From the NCBI RefSeq assembly GCF_013315695.1, contig NZ_CP054353.1: a DNA stretch of 64,000 bases, one strand, 5' to 3'. The notes beneath the pieces were generated by a model, which saw only the letters and a list, made by a program, of their open reading frames with translations, had not been told where the DNA came from and did no database searches. This DNA is from Escherichia coli. Its GTDB lineage: Bacteria; Pseudomonadota; Gammaproteobacteria; Enterobacterales; Enterobacteriaceae. Below, one piece after another: positions 1 to 63,829 of this stretch (its first letter is position 1; every line of letters begins with the position of its first letter). A program made the position numbers and the translations under genes.

Positions 1-79
1 CACCAGAAAGGCGCTTAAGAAACGGGTGATGCTGCCAACTTACTGATTTAGTGTATGATGGTGTTTTTGAGGTGCTCCA

Positions 80-355
80 GTGGCTTCTGTTTCTATCAGC
101 TGTCCCTCCTGTTCAGCTACTGACGGGGTGGTGCGTAACGGCAAAAGCACCGCCGGACATCAGCGCTATCTCTGCTCTCACTGCCGTAAAACATGGCAAC
201 TGCAGTTCACTTACACCGCTTCTCAACCCGGTACGCACCAGAAAATCATTGATATGGCCATGAATGGCGTTGGATGCCGGGCAACAGCCCGCATTATGGG
301 CGTTGGCCTCAACACGATTTTACGTCACTTAAAAAACTCAGGCCGCAGTCGGTAA
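80..355 (+). CDS. insA: IS1 protein InsA (91 aa)
   Basis: ORF track 91 aa [16 protein letters not shown]...; recognised InsA sequence. Confidence 0.9.
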
Positions 356-777
356 CCTCGCGCATACAGCCGGGCAGTGACGTCATCGTCTGCGCGGAAA
401 TGGACGAACAGTGGGGCTATGTCGGGGCTAAATCGCGCCAGCGCTGGCTGTTTTACGCGTATGACAGGCTCCGGAAGACGGTTGTTGCGCACGTATTCGG
501 TGAACGCACTATGGCGACGCTGGGGCGTCTTATGAGCCTGCTGTCACCCTTTGACGTGGTGATATGGATGACGGATGGCTGGCCGCTGTATGAATCCCGC
601 CTGAAGGGAAAGCTGCACGTAATCAGCAAGCGATATACGCAGCGAATTGAGCGGCATAACCTGAATCTGAGGCAGCACCTGGCACGGCTGGGACGGAAGT
701 CGCTGTCGTTCTCAAAATCGGTGGAGCTGCATGACAAAGTCATCGGGCATTATCTGAACATAAAACACTATCAATAA
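274..777 (+). CDS. insB: IS1 InsB reading frame (167 aa); transposase is made as InsAB by -1 frameshift
   Basis: ORF track 167 aa [16 protein letters not shown]...; overlaps insA 3' end as in IS1. Confidence 0.9.
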
Positions 778-846
778 GTTGGAGTCATTACCGGATTTTC
801 TTAACCCGTACTATACACATAGGGGCAATGATAAAAGGTGGCAAAA

Positions 847-942
847 ATGAATGTTTCCAGTAGAACTGTAGTACTGATAAATGTCTTTGCTGCTGTTGGT
901 TTGTTTACTCTTATCTCTATGAGATTTGGCTGGTTTATTTGA
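847..942 (+). CDS. yncL: Small membrane protein YncL (31 aa)
   Basis: Hand-translated ATG..TGA: MNVSSRTVVLINVFAAVGLFTLISMRFGWFI; position next to patD as in K-12. Confidence 0.6.
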   Translation: MNVSSRTVVLINVFAAVGLFTLISMRFGWFI

Positions 943-1038
943 TGTAGTGATTTTGCACGCAGCACGTACTGTCAGAGAAATCAGTGCTCTGACAGTACGC
1001 AAGATCATCTCATACTCTTACGATCTGCAATATTATCC

Positions 1039-2463
1039 TTAATGTTTAACCATGACGTGGCGGACGACGGTGTAATCCTCCAGCCCATAAAGTGACATAT
1101 CCTTGCCGTAACCAGAAAGTTTCTGCCCACCGTGCGGCATTTCACTTACCAGCATGAAATGGGTATTGACCCAGGTACAACCATATTGCAGCCGCGCGCT
1201 GACGCGATGCGCCCTGCCCACATCTTTCGTCCATACCGAGGATGCAAGTCCGTACTGACTGTCATTCGCCCAGTTCACCACCTGTTCTTCGTTGTCGAAG
1301 AGCGTAACACTCACTACCGGACCAAATACCTCTTTTTGCACGATGGCATCATCCTGTAATGCGCCAGCCAGTAGCGTCGGCGCATAGTAATAGCCATTAC
1401 CCTTGCGCTTTTCACCACCGGTGATCACTTTGATGTGCCCTGTCGCTTTCGCCTCTTCTACCGCCTTGCTGACGCGTTCGAGATGCGCCAGCGAGCTTAA
1501 AGGTCCAAGCTCCGTAGACTCGTCAGCCGGTGCACCCGATTTTAACGTTGCCACCGCAGCACCGAGTTTTTCCACCAGCGTATCGTAAATGCCTTTTTGC
1601 GCGTAGATCCGACAAGCCGCTGTACAATCCTGTCCGGCATTGTAATAGCCAAAAGTACGTACACCTTCGACCACTGCTTCAATATCCGCATCATCAAAAA
1701 CAATCACTGGCGCTTTGCCACCAAGTTCCATATGAGTACGCTTAATCGACGGCGCGGTATGGCTGATGATGTGCTCGCCGGTGGCGATAGAGCCCGTCAG
1801 CGACACCATCCGCACTTTAGGATGTCCGGTCAGCGGATCGCCCACCGTTTTGCCTCTGCCAAACAGTACGTTAATCACGCCTGCCGGGAAGATATCTTTC
1901 GCCAGCTCTGCCAACTTCAACGCGGTCAGCGGGGTAATTTCTGATGGTTTAAGCACTACGCAGTTCCCTGCCGCCAGCGCCGGAGCCAGTTTCCACGCGG
2001 CCATCATCAGCGGATAATTCCACGGTGCGATAGAAGCCACGACCCCCAACGGATCGCGACGGATCATCGAAGTATGACCTTCAAGATATTCACCTGCCGC
2101 CAGACCATTCAGACAGCGCGCCGCACCCGCGAAAAAGCGAAAGACATCGACAATCGCCGGGATTTCATCATTGAACGCACTATGCAGTGGTTTGCCACAA
2201 TTACGGGACTCCAGTTCGGCAAAAACCTGACCATTTTCTTCGATAACATCAGCCAGTTTCAGCAGACATTCCGCACGCACTTTCGGCGTGGTTTGCCCCC
2301 ATTCGGCAAATGCTGCATCTGCCGCGCGCACAGCAGCATCGACCTGCTCTGCGGATGCCTCGGCAATCTCCAGTAAAACGTCCCCCGTTGCCGGATTATA
2401 GACAGGCTGTTTTTCCCCTTCGCCGCTAACCAGTTCTCCGTTAATCAGTAACTTATGTTGCAT
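1039..2463 (-). CDS. patD: Gamma-aminobutyraldehyde dehydrogenase (474 aa)
   Basis: [30 protein letters not shown]...; aldehyde dehydrogenase family, recognised as PatD/YdcW. Confidence 0.9.
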
Positions 2464-4210: not shown

Positions 4211-5224
4211 TCACCTCTCCTCAACCAGCGGCACCATCACATCACGCGACCAGGAAACCATCACCTGTTGACCGGGCGTGAGCGTATTGGGTAAGTCTTC
4301 GCCCGTTACATTTGCCTGGCTAACCAGCAGTTTTTCTCCACCGCTAAGTTTCAGTTCAAAACGTGTGGCTGCCCCCTGATATTGCACCGCCTGAATCGTG
4401 CCATTAGCCTGCACTTCGCCGGGGATGTTGAAGCGGATATGTTCCGGTCGCAGGGCGAAGCTTCCCGTCATGCCACAAAGTTTGTCTGCCATCAGTGCAT
4501 CAAAAACATTCGATGTCCCGACGAACCCGGCAACAAACGGCGTGCGCGGGCGCATATAGAGATCGCGCGGGGAATCGACCTGCTCAATGCGTCCATTATT
4601 GAAAACCGCCACACGATCGGACATCGATAACGCTTCGCCCTGATCGTGGGTAACGAAGATAAAAGTGATACCGAGAGACTGTTGCAGCTTTTTCAGTTCC
4701 AGTTGCATCTGCTCACGCAATTTGAGATCCAGTGCGCCGAGCGGTTCATCCAACAGCAATACGCGCGGTTCATTCACCAGTGCTCTGGCAATAGCAACCC
4801 GTTGGCGCTGACCACCAGAAAGTTGTGACGGTTTACGTTGCTGTACAAACCCCAACGCCACTTTCTCCAGCGCCTCCTGCGCCATCGCATGCCGCTGCTT
4901 TTTATTCACGCCTTTGACCATCAGCCCATAGGCGACATTGTCAAGAATCGACATATGCGGGAATAGCGCGTAGTCCTGAAAGACAGTATTCACGTCCCGC
5001 TCCCACGGTGGCAGATTGCTGGCGGGTTTACCAAAGATAGAGATAGCCCCGCCGGAAAGTTGTTCGAATCCAGCAATCAGGCGCAGGCAGGTGGTTTTGC
5101 CGGAACCGGACGGCCCCAGCATAGAGAAGAACTCACCATCTTTTATCGCAATACTGACGCCATCTACTGCGCGCACGTCACCGTACAACCGTGAGACGTT
5201 GTCAAACTCCACTGCGTACGTCAT
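4211..5224 (-). CDS. ydcT: ABC transporter ATP-binding protein (337 aa)
   Basis: Walker A GPSGSGKTT, signature LSGGQRQR, Walker B LLLDEP in translation. Confidence 0.9.
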   Translation of the reverse strand: MTYAVEFDNVSRLYGDVRAVDGVSIAIKDGEFFSMLGPSGSGKTTCLRLIAGFEQLSGGAISIFGKPASNLPPWERDVNTVFQDYALFPHMSILDNVAYGLMVKGVNKKQRHAMAQEALEKVALGFVQQRKPSQLSGGQRQRVAIARALVNEPRVLLLDEPLGALDLKLREQMQLELKKLQQSLGITFIFVTHDQGEALSMSDRVAVFNNGRIEQVDSPRDLYMRPRTPFVAGFVGTSNVFDALMADKLCGMTGSFALRPEHIRFNIPGEVQANGTIQAVQYQGAATRFELKLSGGEKLLVSQANVTGEDLPNTLTPGQQVMVSWSRDVMVPLVEER

Positions 5225-23207: not shown

Positions 23208-23479
23208 TACCGTTGTCTCTCGTCCAGGTTTACTCCTGATAGAAAGTCATCGGCACTTGACGGTAATTACTTATGACCAAAAACCTCTTTGCGTCACATT
23301 TTTACAACAATTATGGCAGAGAAGAATAATGCCATTGGAATGAAGAGAGTAACGAACGGCTAAACCGAATGACGAAAAATTCTGGAAAACAGCACGCAAT
23401 TTCGTCAAGTGATTATTTTCGTCCCTAAGGAAACCTCATAGGATGCCTGCGGGTGCCTGAGACTTTCTGTTTTCAGGCT

Positions 23480-23538
23480 AACCGGGAATCAGAAAGACGA
23501 AGGCCCCGACCGATATTTCTATCAACCGAGGCCAACGA

Positions 23539-23545
<7 letters not shown>
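23480..23545 (-). ncRNA. sokB: Putative SokB antisense RNA (position approximate)
   Basis: Inferred from hok/sok organisation: antisense to the mokB leader; not resolved directly in sequence. Confidence 0.3.
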
Positions 23546-23746
<201 letters not shown>

Positions 23747-24161: not shown

Positions 24162-24225
24162 CTTCCGATGTAGGCCCGTATTCTTCGCCTGTACCACGGG
24201 TCGGTTTTAGTACAGGCGTTTTCTT
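24162..24225 (+). ncRNA. rydC: RydC small RNA (pseudoknot sRNA)
   Basis: CTTCCGATGTAGGCCCGTATTCTTCGCCTGTACCACGGGTCGGTTTTAGTACAGGCGTTTTCTT between ydcA and cybB, matching my recollection of RydC. Confidence 0.6.
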
Positions 24226-32800: not shown

Positions 32801-33415
<615 letters not shown>

Positions 33416-33429
33416 CCGGACACGATCTT

Positions 33430-33459
33430 GATGTGGACTGTAGATATTCAGTCCACATC
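33430..33459. terminator. Stem-loop between convergent azoR and ynbD
   Basis: GATGTGGACT ... AGTCCACATC inverted repeat. Confidence 0.5.
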
Positions 33460-33468
33460 TCAATCCGC

Positions 33469-36532
<3,064 letters not shown>

Positions 36533-36547
36533 TTTCTCTATTTTCCT

Positions 36548-37444
36548 TCAGTAACAGCAGTAGCGAATAAAATAAAAAAATACCGGAGCGGTGAAAATTA
36601 ATGAGTCAATCCTGTCAAGGAGTCCGCCATGTCCTGGTAATAGTTTTCCACTATCTTTAACACCAATATCTCGTTTGATGGCTGACATCACTACATCGCC
36701 GCAAAAACCACTTACCCCAATCAGTAACCCCGCCAATAATGCCTGCCAGGCGTTTAAGGGTGTCAATAACGGTCCAATGATCATCGACGCTATCATGGTG
36801 GTGATTACGCCGCCCATCAGACCTTCCAGTGTTTTTCCCGGGCTGACTTTGGGGACCACTTTTCTTCTGCCGCAGGATTTTCCCCATAAATACTGTGCAA
36901 TATCGTTTGACTCGGTTAATGCCAAAAGAAATAACACCAGTAACGCCCCGCCCTGGATATTTGTGGTTGGCAACATTAATAACCAGGCGGCATGACTCAA
37001 GGCGAAAACGGTCATTATCCAGCCACAAAAAATGGCACTCACGGTATGCAGAAAACCAGAGGGGTCACCCACTAAAACTCGCCAGGTGGCTAATATCAGA
37101 AACCCAGCCAAAGGTATAAATAACAGAAACAGCTCAAAGCAATTAAAACCGATAAGCAAATAGTTAAGAGGAATACCCCAATATAACCAACGCGGAAAAT
37201 GTACGGATATAAGCGTACAATATTCTTTCAATGCCAGAAAACTTATCAGCGCAAAAAACGTCAACGTCATCCAGCGTGGACCTGAAATCACCATTGAAAA
37301 ACAAATGACGATGCCCCACCAGGTACGAATACGTAATGTAACCTCACCCCCTTTTCCCTCCGGTAACCGCCATATCAGAAAACGGTTTATCAGCGTTGCT
37401 AAAATTAACAACGCGAAAAGTGTTGCCAGAGATTTTTCCAGCAT
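36548..37444 (-). CDS. ynbB: CDP-diglyceride synthetase (CdsA)-family membrane protein (298 aa)
   Basis: Multi-pass membrane ORF; synteny. Confidence 0.8.
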   Translation of the reverse strand: MLEKSLATLFALLILATLINRFLIWRLPEGKGGEVTLRIRTWWGIVICFSMVISGPRWMTLTFFALISFLALKEYCTLISVHFPRWLYWGIPLNYLLIGFNCFELFLLFIPLAGFLILATWRVLVGDPSGFLHTVSAIFCGWIMTVFALSHAAWLLMLPTTNIQGGALLVLFLLALTESNDIAQYLWGKSCGRRKVVPKVSPGKTLEGLMGGVITTMIASMIIGPLLTPLNAWQALLAGLLIGVSGFCGDVVMSAIKRDIGVKDSGKLLPGHGGLLDRIDSLIFTAPVFFYFIRYCCY

Positions 37445-38049
37445 TATCTTTCAGCACTCATCAGGAGCACACTTCGACAACGATTAATCGCAGTCCAGAG
37501 AAGCAAAATTGAAGCAATGCTCCATAAAAGATTATTCCATTGCATCCACTGTGGATAAATGGCAACAGCCAGCCCCCACAACCCAAATATTAACGCACGA
37601 TCGCTTTTGCCGAATGGACCGGCATAACTGCGAATACCGTTAATCGTCTGCGCGAGTAAACCGCAAAACTCAGTTAATATGGTGCAAAATAACATGAGTA
37701 TTACGAGTGATGCGTTACTTTCCGGTAAAAATAAAAACGGTAAATAAAGCGCAATATCGGAAATAACATCGCCAGTTTCATTCAAAATCGCCCCAAGACG
37801 TGTTTGCTGATTGCACTCACGCGCCATCATGCCATCCAGCGCATTGAGCGCCATACGGATAAAAAGCACGATAGGCAATAGCAAAAAGAGGATGGGTTGT
37901 GCCACCAACATCAACAGCAATCCGGTAAGAAGAGAAAGCGCCAGTGCAGCAAGAGTGATGTGATTCGCTGTAACATGGTGCTTATTAAGCCAAAACATCG
38001 TCGGCCTTAACAGCGACTGAAAGAGCGGTTTTATCTGGTAGAGCGTCAT
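37444..38049 (-). CDS. ynbA: CDP-alcohol phosphatidyltransferase-family membrane protein (201 aa)
   Basis: Start set at MTLYQIKPLF; motif DGMMARE... consistent with CDP-alcohol phosphatidyltransferase. Confidence 0.8.
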   Translation of the reverse strand: MTLYQIKPLFQSLLRPTMFWLNKHHVTANHITLAALALSLLTGLLLMLVAQPILFLLLPIVLFIRMALNALDGMMARECNQQTRLGAILNETGDVISDIALYLPFLFLPESNASLVILMLFCTILTEFCGLLAQTINGIRSYAGPFGKSDRALIFGLWGLAVAIYPQWMQWNNLLWSIASILLLWTAINRCRSVLLMSAER

Positions 38050-38219
38050 TATCAATCCTTGATAATTCGGTTTGCGCTATGGTGCATCAATTCCCCTGAC
38101 GGAGATATCGCAACACGCCGCTTCATTAAAAATTCAGAATATATCAAGGTATTGGGGACTCACCGTCAGGAATGATTATCCCCAATAAATCAAGTGGTTA
38201 AAAATTATTACGCTGTTAT

Positions 38220-38597
38220 TCAATACAACTCATTAAGTTTTCTCATCGCTTGTTCCCGTATTGCGCGCGTCTTACCGTTAAGCGCCAGCTGGCGGACTAA
38301 ATCCAGTTCAGGGTTAACAAGCTCTAACGCCAGCAAAGGATCACGTTTCAGCCTCGCCTTCAATACATCAACTGGGAAACGGGGATCATTCATCGCCATA
38401 ATCCACCACTCGGGATCAATTTCTGCCGCTAGTGCCGCAGACGGTGTATGGCGATTGTTAAGTGCGCCGAACTTGAAAAATGTAAGATTGCTTTTCGCCA
38501 GCGTACTCCACCATATACGATCCGGTTGTTTTGCCAGTTTATCCAGTTGCGCTAATGCATCGGAGTCAAGTGCATAATAAACACGTAACGCTTCGTT
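38220..38597 (-). pseudogene. ydbD: 3' remnant (125 codons) of a gene truncated by IS1; ydbD by synteny
   Basis: Minus-strand frame open from the IS1 junction (38597) to stop at 38220, with no start codon. Confidence 0.5.
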
Positions 38598-38652
38598 GGT
38601 GATGCTGCCAACTTACTGATTTAGTGTATGATGGTGTTTTTGAGGTGCTCCA

Positions 38653-38928
38653 GTGGCTTCTGTTTCTATCAGCTGTCCCTCCTGTTCAGCTACTGACGGG
38701 GTGGTGCGTAACGGCAAAAGCACCGCCGGACATCAGCGCTATCTCTGCTCTCACTGCCGTAAAACATGGCAACTGCAGTTCACTTACACCGCTTCTCAAC
38801 CCGGTACGCACCAGAAAATCATTGATATGGCCATGAATGGCGTTGGATGCCGGGCAACAGCCCGCATTATGGGCGTTGGCCTCAACACGATTTTACGTCA
38901 CTTAAAAAACTCAGGCCGCAGTCGGTAA
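38653..38928 (+). CDS. insA: IS1 InsA
   Basis: Translation identical to copy 1 InsA. Confidence 0.9.
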
Positions 38929-39350
38929 CCTCGCGCATACAGCCGGGCAGTGACGTCATCGTCTGCGCGGAAATGGACGAACAGTGGGGCTATGTCGGGG
39001 CTAAATCGCGCCAGCGCTGGCTGTTTTACGCGTATGACAGGCTCCGGAAGACGGTTGTTGCGCACGTATTCGGTGAACGCACTATGGCGACGCTGGGGCG
39101 TCTTATGAGCCTGCTGTCACCCTTTGACGTGGTGATATGGATGACGGATGGCTGGCCGCTGTATGAATCCCGCCTGAAGGGAAAGCTGCACGTAATCAGC
39201 AAGCGATATACGCAGCGAATTGAGCGGCATAACCTGAATCTGAGGCAGCACCTGGCACGGCTGGGACGGAAGTCGCTGTCGTTCTCAAAATCGGTGGAGC
39301 TGCATGACAAAGTCATCGGGCATTATCTGAACATAAAACACTATCAATAA
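38847..39350 (+). CDS. insB: IS1 InsB reading frame
   Basis: Translation identical to copy 1 InsB. Confidence 0.9.
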
Positions 39351-39505
39351 GTTGGAGTCATTACCACTTGAACCGATAATAAACGCAGAAATTCTATTTT
39401 GTAGCTCATTGTTGCCTCCTGTGTGAATTGTTCGAATCTACCAGGCTGCGATGAAAGAAGTCGTGTAGTAGAGAGCTATACCCGCAACAAGCGGGGCAGA
39501 CGTTC

Positions 39506-39829
39506 TTATTTCTGTAACCATTTTCCGTTAATGCCCTGCACATATTCTCCTGATTTAGCGCGAGCTACGAGCTTTTGCCCGGCAAGTTTCGCGATATCAT
39601 CTACCGACACATTATTTTGCTTTGCCAGTTGTTGATAGCTCGCTTTACGTTCGGCATTAATGTCGGTTACTAATTTCTCTGTTTCAGCATCTGTTTTCAG
39701 CGCAACCAGATAACCATAAAATGTTTCCCCTACCCGCCCCTGAGTTCTGGCTTCATCCAGAGTCAATGCCATTACATTGCTGCTTACCAAGCCAACAAGA
39801 AATGCACAAAGAAGTAATGTTCTTTTCAT
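39506..39829 (-). CDS. ydbL: DUF1318-family periplasmic protein YdbL (108 aa)
   Basis: Start set at MKRTLLLCAFLVGL; signal peptide. Confidence 0.8.
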   Translation of the reverse strand: MKRTLLLCAFLVGLVSSNVMALTLDEARTQGRVGETFYGYLVALKTDAETEKLVTDINAERKASYQQLAKQNNVSVDDIAKLAGQKLVARAKSGEYVQGINGKWLQK

Positions 39830-39836
39830 CATCACC

Positions 39837-40022
39837 TCAAAAAAGATCGCTACGGGTCTCAAGCAGCTCTTCGACATCTTTGTCTGCCTTGATGATGATC
39901 TCATGCTCAATTTTAACGTTCATATTGATAGTGATCGGTTCCTTAGGTGCAGCGACTTCAATGCGAGGCGTACAGCCAACCAGCATAAAAGATGACGTCA
40001 ACGCAGCCAGTAAAATTTTCAT
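39837..40022 (-). CDS. ynbE: Lipoprotein YnbE (61 aa)
   Basis: MKILLAALTSSFMLVGC lipobox. Confidence 0.8.
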   Translation of the reverse strand: MKILLAALTSSFMLVGCTPRIEVAAPKEPITINMNVKIEHEIIIKADKDVEELLETRSDLF

Positions 40023-42658
40023 TGTTTTTCCTCACACTCTTTTCCTTGCGGACAGTCATTTCCCGGCAGACGCGCGTTCTGCTCCAGCCATGCCTGGAGA
40101 TTATCGCCAAAGCGTAAACTGCGCCACAGCGTAAAAATATTCTCTTCATGATGGTAATTAAGATTTACCGTACCGCTTTTACCATCAACGCGACTGGTAC
40201 CTGTAATGTTGGCCTGCATGGTTAATAAACCGAGATTATCTAAATTAATTTTTGTCGATGAACGGCTAATTTCCATATAGCGCAACCAGTTAATTGCTGA
40301 ACCCGCGGTCATATTGTCTTTCACCACCGCATCTGCGGTGTCTTTATCCAGCCGCAAGGTCATCGGCCCGCTATTTGCCAGCCAGCCGTCTTTCACTATC
40401 CATTTTTCGTTGTTTAGCCATAACGGCAATGCACCACTAAATGCCCCGGACATGGCGAATTGTTTCGGATTGACGGCGCTAACCAGTTCGCTGGAGGAAA
40501 GATTATTCAGCCGCAACAGCGCCGGGTCATGTTGCGGCATACGTAATTGTTTCATCAGCACGTTACCGCCTAACACATCAACGCTAACATCAGTCAACAG
40601 CAATGGTTCTTCTTCAGTCCACGGATAACGACCTTGCAAATCAGCCGTAATATTTTTCGCTGTCACCAGATTAATCACTTCGGCAATTCGCAACGTAACG
40701 GGGCCGCGAGTCCCCAGATGCCAGGCTCCATCGGCAAAACGGAAAGGCAGGACAAAATCGACACCGTTAACCTGATTATCTGGCATCCAGGCACTACCGC
40801 CTTTCAACACACCGTGCCCTCCCGCGCGGAATCCTTGTTCAGGCGCAGCAGAAAATGCGACCTGGGCATATAGTTCGCCATCGCGTAAGTTCATCTTCCA
40901 GTCGGGTGGCACCAGCGGCTGGAATACGGTCAGTGATTGTTTAGGCCACCAGGCGTTACCGCGCAGACGAATACCGTCCCAGCGACCATTTACCCGAACC
41001 GGGCCAATCTCACCAGCATGTAAATCGCCTTTAAAGAGGAAATACGTCGGATCGCGTCCATCGACGCTAAATTTTAAGGTTGATGGCGGTAACACACTGC
41101 CGCCAGTGAACAGCGTTTGCCCGGCGTCCAGTGACAGCGCGCCGCTAAAGGAGGGATGCTGTGCGTCACGTACCCAGACGACGGGCTTGTCGAGAATTAG
41201 TCGCGGCTTTTCAACCGTCATCGTACCGTATTGTAACTGGTCGAAACCGGTGGAGAGATCGGTCAGCGTAATCGTGCTGTCATGCCACTCACCCTTTCCT
41301 GCGACATCCCAGGTGGCATTCATCGGTGTAAAACTGCCTTTTCCCCAGTAGCGCCACTGCCAGCGGCCAGCGTCAGGGAGAAAATCATTCGCCAGTCCAT
41401 CCATATGCAGCACGAAATCGCCCAGTTCATTTTCATGCGCCTGCAAAATGGCCTGCAAACGTCCGTCAACACCACGTTGGGTGACTTTTACACCCGCTAA
41501 AGGCCAGCGGATTTCATCGATGTCCAGCGAATCAATGACTCTTCCCTTTGAACGAAGTAACGCGCCTGGCTCAAAGGTCAACGTTGGGTCAGACAGACTT
41601 CCACTTAGCTGCGCAGGTAAACGGGCATATAAAATGAGGTCCGCCTGTTTCGCTTCACCGGTCAGTTGCATAGGCAGCTGGCTGTTATCCATGCTTAATT
41701 TTCCTGGGCCAAAATTAAGCACCGCGTTGCCTTTACCCGCTTGCCCCTGGGTCAGCACACTCAGTCGTCCGCTGACCAGAGCGTTCTCGAGCCCTGCCTG
41801 CCAGTTGTCGACTTTGACACCCAGTCGGCCACTCAAAGGAAAACCTGCATACGGCCAGCTCCAGCGACCATCGCTTACGGTCAATTGTTGACGAGTAATT
41901 TGCCACGGCAAATCGAGCAACGGATCGCCGTTATCCCGTGCCAGCACGATCAATTGCCCGCTATTTTCCTGCCAGTCCAGCTCTGCATCCACCAGTGACG
42001 GTTCCTGCGGCAAGTTTAACGTCGCAGTAGCATGCCCACTTACCGGAAGTCCATCCGGCACGAGCGGCATAGTAAATTCCCCCTCCAGTTTAACCGGCGG
42101 CTGATTTTCAAACGCGACGACATCCAGTTCGCTGACTGTAAGTTGTTGCCCTTTCAGCTGGCCTTGAAATTTAACTTTTTCGCCCTGATAACGCAGTTGC
42201 TGGATATCGGAGGTTAATGCGAGAGAGAGTTTTCCCTGCCATTCCTGCCAGGGAGAAAAAATCAGTTTATCGATATTGATCCAAGTGTTAGGCAACATGG
42301 CCTGCCACTGCGCGAGGTTTTTTGGAGCGGCTGGCGATTGCTCCGTCTGCGGCAATTTCGCCAGACAAGTAGAATCAAGTTCTACCGTGCCGACGTTCAA
42401 TAACCAGCGGCTGGGATGTGAAAGGCTGGCGTTGGTGATATGCGCAAGCTGACAATCTCCCACCAGATAACGGAGATCGGGAATGATTAAACCTTTACGC
42501 GTAATGCGTGGGCTTTCATCTAATGCAATACGTGTCCCGAGCGGTAGCCAGATGCCCGCCAGCGTGGGAACCCACAGCCCGAGCGTCATCAGCAGCGTCA
42601 ACGGCACAAGAATAATCAGTAATAACAGCGCGAGAACGGCTTTATATTTACCCAGCAT
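40019..42658 (-). CDS. ydbH: AsmA-like large membrane-anchored protein YdbH (879 aa)
   Basis: N-terminal TM segment then long soluble region; ydbH-ynbE-ydbL cluster. Confidence 0.85.
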   Translation of the reverse strand: MLGKYKAVLALLLLIILVPLTLLMTLGLWVPTLAGIWLPLGTRIALDESPRITRKGLIIPDLRYLVGDCQLAHITNASLSHPSRWLLNVGTVELDSTCLAKLPQTEQSPAAPKNLAQWQAMLPNTWINIDKLIFSPWQEWQGKLSLALTSDIQQLRYQGEKVKFQGQLKGQQLTVSELDVVAFENQPPVKLEGEFTMPLVPDGLPVSGHATATLNLPQEPSLVDAELDWQENSGQLIVLARDNGDPLLDLPWQITRQQLTVSDGRWSWPYAGFPLSGRLGVKVDNWQAGLENALVSGRLSVLTQGQAGKGNAVLNFGPGKLSMDNSQLPMQLTGEAKQADLILYARLPAQLSGSLSDPTLTFEPGALLRSKGRVIDSLDIDEIRWPLAGVKVTQRGVDGRLQAILQAHENELGDFVLHMDGLANDFLPDAGRWQWRYWGKGSFTPMNATWDVAGKGEWHDSTITLTDLSTGFDQLQYGTMTVEKPRLILDKPVVWVRDAQHPSFSGALSLDAGQTLFTGGSVLPPSTLKFSVDGRDPTYFLFKGDLHAGEIGPVRVNGRWDGIRLRGNAWWPKQSLTVFQPLVPPDWKMNLRDGELYAQVAFSAAPEQGFRAGGHGVLKGGSAWMPDNQVNGVDFVLPFRFADGAWHLGTRGPVTLRIAEVINLVTAKNITADLQGRYPWTEEEPLLLTDVSVDVLGGNVLMKQLRMPQHDPALLRLNNLSSSELVSAVNPKQFAMSGAFSGALPLWLNNEKWIVKDGWLANSGPMTLRLDKDTADAVVKDNMTAGSAINWLRYMEISRSSTKINLDNLGLLTMQANITGTSRVDGKSGTVNLNYHHEENIFTLWRSLRFGDNLQAWLEQNARLPGNDCPQGKECEEKQ

Positions 42659-42865
42659 GGGTAGTTAATATCCTGATTTAGCGAAAAATTAAGCATTCAA
42701 TACGGGTATTGTGGCATGTTTAACCGTTCAGTTGAAGGTTGCGCCTACACTAAGCATAGTTGTTGATGAATTTTTCAATATCGCCATAGCTTTCAATTAT
42801 ATTTGAAATTTTGTAAGATATTTTTAGTAGCTTAAATGTGATTCAACATCACTGGAGAAAGTCTT

Positions 42866-43855
42866 ATGAAACTCGCCGTTTATAGCACAAAACAGTACGA
42901 CAAGAAGTACCTGCAACAGGTGAACGAGTCCTTTGGCTTTGAGCTGGAATTTTTTGACTTTCTGCTGACGGAAAAAACCGCTAAAACTGCCAATGGCTGC
43001 GAAGCGGTATGTATTTTCGTAAACGATGACGGCAGCCGCCCGGTGCTGGAAGAGCTGAAAAAGCACGGCGTTAAATATATCGCCCTGCGCTGTGCCGGTT
43101 TCAATAACGTCGACCTTGACGCGGCAAAAGAACTGGGGCTGAAAGTAGTCCGTGTTCCAGCCTATGATCCAGAAGCCGTTGCTGAACACGCCATCGGTAT
43201 GATGATGACGCTGAACCGCCGTATTCACCGCGCGTATCAGCGTACCCGTGACGCCAACTTCTCTCTGGAAGGTCTGACCGGCTTTACTATGTATGGCAAA
43301 ACGGCAGGCGTTATCGGTACCGGTAAAATCGGTGTGGCGATGCTGCGCATTCTGAAAGGTTTTGGTATGCGTCTGCTGGCGTTCGATCCGTATCCAAGTG
43401 CGGCGGCGCTGGAACTCGGTGTAGAGTATGTCGATCTGCCAACCCTGTTCTCTGAATCAGACGTTATCTCTCTGCACTGCCCGCTGACACCGGAAAACTA
43501 CCACCTGTTGAACGAAGCCGCCTTCGATCAGATGAAAAATGGCGTGATGATCGTCAATACCAGTCGCGGTGCATTGATTGATTCTCAGGCAGCAATTGAA
43601 GCGCTGAAAAATCAGAAAATTGGTTCGTTGGGTATGGACGTGTATGAAAACGAACGCGATCTGTTCTTTGAAGATAAATCCAACGACGTAATCCAGGATG
43701 ACGTATTCCGTCGTCTGTCTGCCTGCCACAACGTGCTGTTTACCGGGCACCAGGCATTCCTGACAGCAGAAGCTCTGACCAGTATTTCTCAGACTACGCT
43801 GCAAAACTTAAGCAATCTGGAAAAAGGCGAAACCTGCCCGAACGAACTGGTTTAA
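42866..43855 (+). CDS. ldhA: D-lactate dehydrogenase, fermentative (329 aa)
   Basis: NAD-binding GVIGTGKIG; recognised LdhA. Confidence 0.9.
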   Translation: MKLAVYSTKQYDKKYLQQVNESFGFELEFFDFLLTEKTAKTANGCEAVCIFVNDDGSRPVLEELKKHGVKYIALRCAGFNNVDLDAAKELGLKVVRVPAYDPEAVAEHAIGMMMTLNRRIHRAYQRTRDANFSLEGLTGFTMYGKTAGVIGTGKIGVAMLRILKGFGMRLLAFDPYPSAAALELGVEYVDLPTLFSESDVISLHCPLTPENYHLLNEAAFDQMKNGVMIVNTSRGALIDSQAAIEALKNQKIGSLGMDVYENERDLFFEDKSNDVIQDDVFRRLSACHNVLFTGHQAFLTAEALTSISQTTLQNLSNLEKGETCPNELV

Positions 43856-43862
43856 TCTTGCC

Positions 43863-43890
43863 GCTCCCCTGCATTCCAGGGGAGCTTATT
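43863..43890 (+). terminator. Rho-independent terminator after ldhA
   Basis: GCTCCCCTG CATTC CAGGGGAGC followed by T-rich tract. Confidence 0.6.
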
Positions 43891-43965
43891 CAGATAATCC
43901 CCAAAGACCTTTCATCCTCTATTCTTAAAATAGCCCTGAGTCAGAAACTGTAATTGAGAACCACA

Positions 43966-44388
43966 ATGAAGAAAGTAGCCGCGTTTGTTGCGCTAAGCCT
44001 GCTGATGGCGGGATGTGTAAGTAATGACAAAATTGCTGTAACCCCAGAACAGCTACAGCATCATCGCTTTGTGCTGGAAAGCGTAAACGGTAAGCCCGTG
44101 ACCAGCGATAAAAATCCGCCAGAAATCAGCTTTGGTGAAAAAATGATGATTTCCGGCAGCATGTGTAACCGCTTTAGCGGTGAAGGCAAACTGTCTAATG
44201 GTGAACTGACAGCCAAAGGACTGGCAATGACCCGTATGATGTGCGCCAACCCACAGCTTAATGAACTCGATAACACCATTAGCGAAATGCTGAAAGAAGG
44301 TGCACAAGTGGATCTGACCGCGAACCAGTTAACGCTGGCGACCGCGAAACAGACATTAACTTATAAGCTGGCGGATTTAATGAATTAA
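43966..44388 (+). CDS. hslJ: Heat-shock lipoprotein HslJ (140 aa)
   Basis: Start set at MKKVAAFVALSLLMAGC lipobox. Confidence 0.85.
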   Translation: MKKVAAFVALSLLMAGCVSNDKIAVTPEQLQHHRFVLESVNGKPVTSDKNPPEISFGEKMMISGSMCNRFSGEGKLSNGELTAKGLAMTRMMCANPQLNELDNTISEMLKEGAQVDLTANQLTLATAKQTLTYKLADLMN

Positions 44389-44651
44389 TAGCTGCCACAG
44401 CTCCCGGCGGCAAGTGACTGTTCGCTACAGCGTTTGCCGTTGGGTAATGCACACATCCCAATCGCCGTACCATCCAGTTGACGGGCAACAGAAAGCGAAC
44501 CGCCGATCATTGCACAATTTGCTTCTCCACTACTGGACATCGACGCTTTTAAACCTGGCGCTACGTGCGCCGCAGTCGCCTGCTGAACAGGTTCACTATT
44601 ACACGCCGACAATAATAAAGCGGCACACCCTACCCAAAACGCTGCTCGCAT
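44385..44651 (-). CDS. ydbJ: DUF333-family lipoprotein YdbJ (88 aa)
   Basis: LLLSACNS lipobox; synteny. Confidence 0.75.
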   Translation of the reverse strand: MRAAFWVGCAALLLSACNSEPVQQATAAHVAPGLKASMSSSGEANCAMIGGSLSVARQLDGTAIGMCALPNGKRCSEQSLAAGSCGSY

Positions 44652-48448: not shown

Positions 48449-48476
48449 ATGCTCTGGATAAGGATCATCCAATTCT

Positions 48477-48571
48477 AAAAAAAAGCCCGGACGACGGTTC
48501 GGGCTTGTCTCATTATTTGTTGGATAAACAGTAACAAGGGTCCAACAGAAAATAATCTTTGTGACAATAAA
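48477..48571 (-). ncRNA. micC: MicC small RNA (OmpC-repressing), with its intrinsic terminator
   Basis: Minus-strand GTTATATGCCTTTATTGTCACA... 5' seed, ending in hairpin GCCCGAACCGTCGTCCGGGC plus T-run; between ydbK and ompN as in K-12. Confidence 0.6.
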
Positions 48572-48838
48572 GGCATATAACCCGCGAAGAATAACGCATC
48601 ACTATTTAAATGTATAATTTTTATTTTGTATATGTCGCCAACAATATATTCACCAGACTTATTATCATTTCAGAAGAATTATTTGATTAAGGTTTTACTT
48701 AAGGCGTAACAAATAATATTTATCGTCTAACTGAACTTCTCCTTTAGGATGCTTTCACTCCCCGAAATGGGGATAAAAGGCAAGGTGATGCTGCCAACTT
48801 ACTGATTTAGTGTATGATGGTGTTTTTGAGGTGCTCCA

Positions 48839-49114
48839 GTGGCTTCTGTTTCTATCAGCTGTCCCTCCTGTTCAGCTACTGACGGGGTGGTGCGTAACGG
48901 CAAAAGCACCGCCGGACATCAGCGCTATCTCTGCTCTCACTGCCGTAAAACATGGCAACTGCAGTTCACTTACACCGCTTCTCAACCCGGTACGCACCAG
49001 AAAATCATTGATATGGCCATGAATGGCGTTGGATGCCGGGCAACAGCCCGCATTATGGGCGTTGGCCTCAACACGATTTTACGTCACTTAAAAAACTCAG
49101 GCCGCAGTCGGTAA
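48839..49114 (+). CDS. insA: IS1 InsA
   Basis: Translation identical to copy 1 InsA. Confidence 0.9.
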
Positions 49115-49536
49115 CCTCGCGCATACAGCCGGGCAGTGACGTCATCGTCTGCGCGGAAATGGACGAACAGTGGGGCTATGTCGGGGCTAAATCGCGCCAG
49201 CGCTGGCTGTTTTACGCGTATGACAGGCTCCGGAAGACGGTTGTTGCGCACGTATTCGGTGAACGCACTATGGCGACGCTGGGGCGTCTTATGAGCCTGC
49301 TGTCACCCTTTGACGTGGTGATATGGATGACGGATGGCTGGCCGCTGTATGAATCCCGCCTGAAGGGAAAGCTGCACGTAATCAGCAAGCGATATACGCA
49401 GCGAATTGAGCGGCATAACCTGAATCTGAGGCAGCACCTGGCACGGCTGGGACGGAAGTCGCTGTCGTTCTCAAAATCGGTGGAGCTGCATGACAAAGTC
49501 ATCGGGCATTATCTGAACATAAAACACTATCAATAA
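49033..49536 (+). CDS. insB: IS1 InsB reading frame
   Basis: Translation identical to copy 1 InsB. Confidence 0.9.
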
Positions 49537-49551
49537 GTTGGAGTCATTACC

Positions 49552-57087: not shown

Positions 57088-57148
57088 TAAAACGAGGCGC
57101 TCGGCCCCTTAATATTATTTAGACGCAAGCGTCGGTAATGACTCCAAC

Positions 57149-57652
57149 TTATTGATAGTGTTTTATGTTCAGATAATGCCCGATGACTTTGTCATGCAGC
57201 TCCACCGATTTTGAGAACGACAGCGACTTCCGTCCCAGCCGTGCCAGGTGCTGCCTCAGATTCAGGTTATGCCGCTCAATTCGCTGCGTATATCGCTTGC
57301 TGATTACGTGCAGCTTTCCCTTCAGGCGGGATTCATACAGCGGCCAGCCATCCGTCATCCATATCACCACGTCAAAGGGTGACAGCAGGCTCATAAGACG
57401 CCCCAGCGTCGCCATAGTGCGTTCACCGAATACGTGCGCAACAACCGTCTTCCGGAGCCTGTCATACGCGTAAAACAGCCAGCGCTGGCGCGATTTAGCC
57501 CCGACATAGCCCCACTGTTCGTCCATTTCCGCGCAGACGATGACGTCACTGCCCGGCTGTATGCGCGAGGTTACCGACTGCGGCCTGAGTTTTTTAAGTG
57601 ACGTAAAATCGTGTTGAGGCCAACGCCCATAATGCGGGCTGTTGCCCGGCAT
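57149..57652 (-). CDS. insB: IS1 InsB reading frame
   Basis: Translation identical to copy 1 InsB. Confidence 0.9.
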
Positions 57653-57846
57653 CCAACGCCATTCATGGCCATATCAATGATTTTCTGGTGCGTACCGGGT
57701 TGAGAAGCGGTGTAAGTGAACTGCAGTTGCCATGTTTTACGGCAGTGAGAGCAGAGATAGCGCTGATGTCCGGCGGTGCTTTTGCCGTTACGCACCACCC
57801 CGTCAGTAGCTGAACAGGAGGGACAGCTGATAGAAACAGAAGCCAC
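57571..57846 (-). CDS. insA: IS1 InsA
   Basis: Translation identical to copy 1 InsA. Confidence 0.9.
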
Positions 57847-57925
57847 TGGAGCACCTCAAAAACACCATCATACACTAAATCAGTAAGTTGGCAGCATCAC
57901 CCCCGGCGTTAAGGGGAGAGATAAG

Positions 57926-63453: not shown

Positions 63454-63648
63454 ATGAGATATGACAATGTTAAACCATGTCCATTTTGTGGTTGTCCATC
63501 AGTAACGGTGAAAGTCATTTCAGGATATTACCGAGCGAAGTGTAACGGATGCGAATCCCGAACCGGTTATGGTGGAAGTGAAAAAGAAGCACTCGAAAGA
63601 TGGAATAAACGAACCACTGGAAATAATAACGGAGGTGTTCATGTATAA
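63454..63648 (+). CDS. ralR: Restriction alleviation protein RalR/Lar (64 aa)
   Basis: Start set at MRYDNVKPCPFCGCPSVTVKV; Cys-rich motif. Confidence 0.7.
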   Translation: MRYDNVKPCPFCGCPSVTVKVISGYYRAKCNGCESRTGYGGSEKEALERWNKRTTGNNNGGVHV

Positions 63649-63829
63649 AATTACCGCCACTATTGAAAAGGAAGGTGGCACTCCTACTAACTGGACAAGA
63701 TATTCAAAATCTAAACTAACGAAATCAGAATGCGAAAAAATGCTCTCAGGTAAAAAAGAAGCAGGCGTTTCCAGAGAGCAGAAAGTAAAACTGATAAATT
63801 TTAATTGCGAGAAACTTCAGTCCTCGTGA
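63641..63829 (+). CDS. ydaC: Rac prophage protein YdaC (62 aa)
   Basis: Start set at MYKITATIEKEGGTPTNW, overlapping ralR stop. Confidence 0.6.
   Translation: MYKITATIEKEGGTPTNWTRYSKSKLTKSECEKMLSGKKEAGVSREQKVKLINFNCEKLQSS

Follow-up and report, generated by a model that had tools for sequence, protein, structure and literature searches.

Deletions promoted by IS1 in the DNA that adjoins it are classical events, known from the gal region of Escherichia coli K-12 since the 1970s, and in Shigella the loss of genes has been driven by the expansion of insertion sequences. The locus examined here resembles the classical adjacent deletions in that the insertion sequence is kept, no target duplication is seen, one contiguous adjoining block is lost and the flanks remain colinear. 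It differs from them in that the event is reconstructed from comparative genomics and was not observed as it happened.

Copies of insertion sequences that lack target duplications have been attributed either to adjacent deletions or to recombination between copies of the element (PMC11708052). The part of the chromosome concerned is itself variable: the paa locus has been described as a 'region of genomic heterogeneity' in phylogroup A E. coli, situated between ydbH-ynbE-ydbL and ynbC-ynbD-azoR (Goldstone et al. 2016, PMC4951805), and in a panel of bovine strains the one genome of phylogroup B2 and the one of phylogroup E lacked paa (PMC5422975). The former study is a survey of gene presence and absence, in which neither the IS1 junction nor the lineage considered here is described.

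We report the analysis of a 64,000-nucleotide stretch of an E. coli chromosome (the window), in which an IS1 lies between a fragment of ydbD and the ydbL side of the locus. We interpret this arrangement as what remains after IS1 mediated a deletion of 9,236 bp and, with some reserve, favour an adjacent deletion promoted by a single IS1 after its insertion. Both junctions of the IS1 occur base for base in two independently completed sister genomes, MSB1_4I (rectal swab, Australia) and AF3 (blood culture, UK), and junction-specific queries of 400 nt, run against 5,426 complete E. coli genomes, recovered either junction in one piece only from these two. The window is the third member of the lineage and is set apart from both sisters by a further deletion, of 362 bp, at another place within it.

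The IS1 (38598..39365, plus strand) is complete, at exactly 768 bp. Its left (38598..38620) and right (39343..39365) terminal repeats are imperfect over 23 bp, matching at 18 of the 23 positions (GGTGATGCTGCCAACTTACTGAT / GGTAATGACTCCAACTTATTGAT). Between them, the list of open reading frames gives insA (38653..38928) and the overlapping insB' frame (38847..39350), which together form insAB' via a programmed frameshift, and a TTAAAAAAC motif for a -1 frameshift on a run of A residues is found at about 38902. Length, terminal repeats and insA with an overlapping insB' in the -1 frame all place the element in the IS1 family as an IS1A-like copy, and RefSeq labels the identical sister sequence as an IS1A family transposase with programmed frameshift. 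The nine nucleotides that flank the element, CGCTTCGTT on the left and ACTTGAACC on the right, are unlike each other, and therefore the 8-9 bp target-site duplication of a simple insertion is not present at this copy. Such a duplication is expected to be missing after a deletion, so that its absence argues against a simple insertion and not against the identity of the element as IS1. The window holds four copies of IS1 in all, which are 100% identical, and a comparison of flanks revealed a target duplication at none of them. A scan for promoters and terminators over 37900..39700 gave a sole site, inside the left end of IS1, which is no more than shuffled sequence gives, and an Rfam search found no RNA family within 38220..39505. 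Elsewhere in the window, matches at the Rfam gathering threshold were obtained for the sok antitoxin RNA (23451..23602, beside hokB), the RydC sRNA (24162..24225) and the RalA antitoxin sRNA (63647..63825, in a Rac-like prophage).

To the left of the IS1, a minus-strand frame (38220..38597) runs uninterrupted from the edge of the element to a stop codon, with no start codon at that edge; an ATG at 38399 within the frame yields an ORF of only 59 amino acids. The 125 codons of the frame are identical to residues 642-766 of the 766-residue YdbD of E. coli MS 21-1 and the DNA is 94.3% identical to ydbD of K-12, which bears out the proposal of the first-pass annotation, made from the letters of the window alone, that this is the start-less 3' end of ydbD. 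Identity to the 3' end of the gene together with loss of the start codon mark the fragment as a pseudogene, of which the last 125 codons and the stop remain. Apart from the start codon, the region for the signal peptide has gone, and with 1,923 coding nucleotides missing in all the loss amounts to about five-sixths of the gene; the Pfam domain DUF2773 is complete in the remnant (E = 6e-44), and no NCBIfam model matches YdbD or YdbL. RefSeq describes the remnant in both sister genomes as a DUF2773 pseudogene 'missing N-terminus' beside an IS1A-family transposase. The pseudogene and its IS1 are thus already known, being annotated in two public genomes.

The genes around the deletion, ydbH-ynbE-ydbL on one side and ynbABCD on the other, are structurally intact. 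The first gene downstream of the remnant is ynbA (37444..38049, minus strand), which is intact both as an ORF and in the RefSeq annotation of the identical sister sequence (L003 20445..21050). On the right, the IS1 is followed by a residual, non-coding part of the ydbL-bigA spacer, 140 nt in length (39366..39505), which is identical to positions 4985..5124 of the MS 21-1 record (L001). Beyond it lie three intact minus-strand genes, ydbL (39506..39829), ynbE (39837..40022) and ydbH (40019..42658). The first of these, the last gene of the ydbH-ynbE-ydbL cluster, is 100% identical to its MS 21-1 counterpart and is, as had been read from the letters of the window, the next gene beyond the IS1. Folding of the 150 nt between IS1 and ydbL disclosed no notable structure (z = 0.04). 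The spacer also carries a minus-strand mini-ORF with a consensus AGGAGG ribosome-binding site (39366..39409; L001 5081..5131), which in MS 21-1 has 16 codons (MSYKIEFLRLLSVQVK). In the window the 15th codon of this putative gene is the one cut by the edge of the IS1; the 16th residue is changed, and the frame, reading on into IS1, would reach a total of 21 codons. The apparent gene start at 39409 (minus strand) was considered as that of a truncated gene and rejected, since in the uninterrupted spacer of MS 21-1 it opens nothing more than these 16 codons.

The extent of the deletion is given by comparison with MS 21-1, which differs from the window by 15 mismatches and one gap over 48.8 kb aligned and has no IS1 in 105 kb around the locus. 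Positions 32957..38597 of the window correspond to L001 20001..14361 with a single mismatch (99.98%), and positions 39366..44489 to L001 5124..1 with 100% identity. MS 21-1 has both flanks in unchanged order and orientation, with L001 5125..14360, exactly 9,236 bp, between them. The arrangement is that of an IS-mediated deletion, with colinear flanks of the same orientation around one contiguous segment in a relative that is IS-free at the locus. The missing segment holds 312 nt of spacer, bigA, pdxI and the first 1,923 nt of ydbD. Its largest gene, bigA, encodes an autotransporter; it is 5.9 kb long and is frameshifted in MS 21-1 and intact in IAI39. MS 21-1 is a close relative and not the actual ancestor, and its frameshift in bigA may or may not predate the deletion.

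The same layout of ydbL, a 452-bp spacer, the autotransporter gene, pdxI and ydbD is found in MS 21-1 and in IAI39, and in MS 21-1 fea, tynA and paa are not at the locus; CE10 and other relatives likewise have the arrangement without paa. The spacer and the 5' end of bigA occur also in IAI39, CE10 and nine other genomes, and most of bigA is common to SMS-3-5 and many further genomes; the stretch of spacer next to the IS1 is covered by only 46 of the 5,426. The nearest reference strains, SMS-3-5 and IAI39, are ones that we take to belong to phylogroup F. A copy of the deleted stretch was not found in the rest of the 64-kb window, and the sister genomes are not among the best 40 matches listed for either the pdxI-ydbD 5' segment or the bigA 5' segment, where a full-length, near-identical copy would have put them immediately behind MS 21-1; as judged in the sister genomes and the window, the missing segment is absent elsewhere. 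Irrespective of the mechanism, we are highly confident of the extent and the content of the deletion.

Another of the IS1 copies bears on how such a deletion may arise. The copy at 48784..49551 lies upstream of ompN, and in MSB1_4I and AF3 it is a simple insertion, flanked by a perfect duplication of 9 bp (AAAAGGCAA), and ompN is intact. From the exact right end of this IS1 (49552 onward), 362 bp are missing in the window, comprising the second copy of the duplication, the leader and about 328 nt of ompN. For this element, then, the intermediate with a single IS1 and its target duplication has been found, and the ompN deletion is polymorphic within the lineage; the ydbD deletion is common to all three members. 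The two elements have the same sequence and share a genome, and the loss beside them is 362 bp at ompN and 9,236 bp at ydbD. The sRNA gene micC (48469..48584, minus strand) is about 200 bp from the ompN IS1.

The remaining two copies also adjoin altered DNA. At the IS1 at 25..792, 236 bp are missing with respect to MS 21-1 (2614168..2614403 of its record), a loss that takes ~96 nt from the start of ortT, an orphan toxin gene, along with the region upstream of it. At the IS1 at 57134..57901 (minus strand), homology to the Rac prophage of K-12 (from the intR side through ydaG) ends exactly at the right flank, 57902, and the left flank leads into non-K-12 DNA in which sitABCD and a DinI-like pseudogene lie. 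A further rearrangement associated with IS1 is probable here; an IS1-free reference for the site was not found.

For the ydbD deletion we propose the following course. The ancestor, of a lineage in which paa, fea and tynA never stood at this locus, would have had the layout of the MS 21-1/IAI39 type, with ydbH-ynbE-ydbL, the 452-bp spacer, bigA (the homologue of ydbA), pdxI (ydbC), ydbD and ynbABCD. An IS1 would first have inserted either at codon 641/642 of ydbD or, 140 nt beyond ydbL, in the AT-rich spacer. The transposase would then have joined one end of this IS1 to a second site on the same chromosome, an intramolecular transposition or 'adjacent deletion', in which the IS1 would stay in place and the DNA between the two sites would go, and with it one of the two 9-bp target repeats. 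A 3' fragment of ydbD with neither promoter nor start codon would be left, and pdxI and bigA would be gone. This order of events, and an adjacent deletion from one IS1 rather than recombination between two, seem to us the most likely, because at ompN this lineage displays both steps, first the insertion of an IS1 and then the loss of the DNA adjoining it.

A less probable course, and still a live alternative, is that the 9.2 kb were lost by homologous recombination between two directly oriented copies of IS1, one in ydbD and the other in the ydbL-bigA spacer. This would leave a single hybrid IS1 between the non-matching halves of two target duplications, an end product the same as that of the adjacent deletion. 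Recombination is listed among the common reasons why copies of an IS lack target duplications (PMC11708052), the four copies in the window are 100% identical to one another, and with at least 40 matches to IS1 in the sister genomes the substrates are plentiful. The route nevertheless needs two independent insertions in the same orientation, 9 kb apart, before the deletion, and neither single insertion was found in any genome; since not one of the 5,426 has an IS1 at just one of the two ydbD/ydbL junctions, recombination keeps an appreciable probability. The 362-bp ompN deletion starts at a pre-existing single IS1 and is itself more readily put down to an adjacent deletion, the route that we retain for ydbD.

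Measured against K-12 the same junction looks very different. The order of genes in K-12 is ydbL, feaR, feaB, tynA, paaZ, paaA-K, paaX, paaY, ynbG, ydbA (interrupted by IS2 and IS30), pdxI/ydbC, ydbD and ynbA, in agreement with the list of genes for this interval given in the first-pass annotation. Homology to K-12 stops at position 38596 of the window and restarts at 39518, and 30,882 bp of K-12 sequence (feaR, feaB, tynA, paaZ-paaY, ydbA, pdxI and the 5' part of ydbD) are without a counterpart in the window. A large deletion relative to K-12, as had been claimed, is thus correct as a description of that comparison, and the deletion itself, defined by the MS 21-1 flanks, is the 9,236 bp given above.

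The further claim, that the junction corresponds to the loss of tens of kilobases of catabolic genes, is contradicted by the spacer beside the IS1 and by the paa-less relatives. The 152 nt at 39366..39517, made up of the 140 nt of spacer and the last 12 nt of ydbL, have no homologue in K-12 even by sensitive blastn. As the final 12 nt of ydbL already fall outside the homology to K-12, the variable region has its edge in the closing codons of that gene and not in intergenic DNA. The same 152 nt are 100% identical to the ydbL-bigA spacer of MS 21-1, from which it follows that the ancestor of the junction had bigA, and not feaR, beside ydbL. With a word size of 9, the spacer and the 5' part of bigA in MS 21-1 showed no homology to K-12 beyond the 3' end of bigA and a 98-nt match. 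The autotransporter genes of the locus, bigA (L001 5437..11306 in MS 21-1) and ydbA of K-12 (L004 25393..34014), can be compared over their length: bigA of MS 21-1 and IAI39 shares with ydbA only the last ~1.1 kb, at about 93% identity, and there is one weak internal match (the 98 nt, 75.5%), the rest of the passenger-domain region having no detectable nucleotide homology. Being for the most part without nucleotide homology, the two are very different alleles.

The catabolic cluster was sought in the relatives by means of a chimeric query, in which a 3.3-kb ynbCBA anchor was combined with K-12 probes of 700-1,000 nt for paaA, tynA, feaB and paaK. The anchor lifts close relatives to the top of the ranking, and the median genome, with matches at 4 places, serves as a positive control. 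On the chromosomes of MSB1_4I, AF3, MS 21-1, SMS-3-5, IAI39 and CE10 the anchor alone was matched, and none of the paaA, tynA, feaB and paaK probes. Given these unmatched probes and the paa-less layout of the relatives, the paa, fea and tynA genes are absent from the whole clade, and were neither lost at the IS1 at 38598..39365 nor moved by an inversion. Presence of the paa and fea genes elsewhere, which had been put forward as a sign of inversion, finds no support on the chromosomes of these six relatives, both sisters included. The catabolic genes being already absent from the clade, the event at ydbD is an ordinary IS-mediated deletion.

It is accordingly very unlikely that the ancestor was K-12-like and lost about 31 kb in the IS1 event, with feaR, feaB, tynA and the entire paa operon among the genes removed. 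The 30,882 bp of K-12 between the points where homology stops would suit such a loss, as would the IS1-bounded deletions seen here in other E. coli, EM20-18-50 (ynbA-IS1B-feaB') and MLI023K1 (ydbD'-IS1-ydbL). The 152 nt that adjoin the IS1 are nonetheless clade-specific ydbL-bigA spacer and not K-12 sequence, neither the closest IS1-free relative nor any reference strain of the clade has paa, fea or tynA, be it there or elsewhere on the chromosome, and paaABC, present in 3,147 of the 5,426 complete genomes, is missing from 42% of them in any case. In E. coli 042 (L002 18025..18384) and LR-28 (L009 4859..5218), abutting remnants of the 3' end of paaX and of feaR, the latter a partial helix-turn-helix gene, were observed beside an intact paaY. 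This IS-free deletion from feaR to paaX in another lineage shows that more than one route has led to loss of the catabolic cluster from the interval.

Finally, an error of assembly, or an inversion or translocation mediated by IS1 with this junction as one of its breakpoints, has in its favour that IS1 is present in many copies and exceeds short reads in length and that all four copies lack a target duplication. Either can be dismissed as extremely improbable, the junctions being identical in two independent complete assemblies from different continents, the order and orientation of the flanks being the same in MS 21-1, IAI39 and K-12, and the missing segment being undetected elsewhere in the sister genomes among the best 40 matches listed. 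With both junctions shared by two independently completed genomes, the structure is real and not a product of the assembly. E. coli 042 and many other genomes that seemed to share the ydbD-IS1 junction were rejected as products of the search tool, which had joined nearby pieces: in E. coli 042, for which positions 1..2366 of the query were covered, the IS1 sits in ynbB and ydbD is intact.

Other E. coli provide independent cases in which a truncated ydbD (or ynbA) and the ydbL/fea side meet at an IS1 and the genes between them are lost. In LR-28 the order is ydbD' (693 nt), IS1, paaY; in MLI023K1 it is ydbD' (1,674 nt), IS1 in the opposite orientation, ydbL; and in EM20-18-50 it is ynbA, IS1B, feaB', with feaR kept and feaB truncated. 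These strains differ from the window in their breakpoints, in the orientation or subtype of the IS1 and in genetic background. In EM20-18-50, then, the paa operon was indeed removed at the IS1. Independent IS1-bounded deletions in unrelated strains mean that the scenario first proposed for the window occurs in E. coli, just not here.

Taken alone, the junction is a textbook IS1 deletion scar and matters little. It illustrates that the choice of K-12 as comparator inflates the deletion more than three-fold (30.9 kb as against 9.2 kb) and attributes to it a catabolic pathway loss that belongs elsewhere; the comparison should be made with the nearest relative that is free of the IS. What has really been lost is pdxI, a gene of pyridoxal salvage, together with the uncharacterised ydbD and an autotransporter gene, which in the closest relative is a pseudogene already. 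The clean series of insertion followed by deletion at ompN could serve for the study of the dynamics of IS1 adjacent deletion in natural isolates.

As in Shigella, there are many identical copies of IS1, and at least three of the four in the window are tied to a truncation or a deletion. Unlike Shigella, these are E. coli from human carriage and bloodstream with a genome of 5.3 Mb. The presence of four identical copies of IS1 in 64 kb, against none in the 105 kb of MS 21-1, with at least three of them deletion-associated and the ompN deletion still polymorphic, leads us to suggest, tentatively, that a human-associated E. coli lineage may be in a recent burst of IS1 with serial adjacent deletions, and that the interval from ydbL to ynbA may, in unrelated E. 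coli too, be a recurrent hot spot for IS1 deletion. If this were so, the lineage would be a natural, time-resolved example of Shigella-like gene loss driven by insertion sequences.
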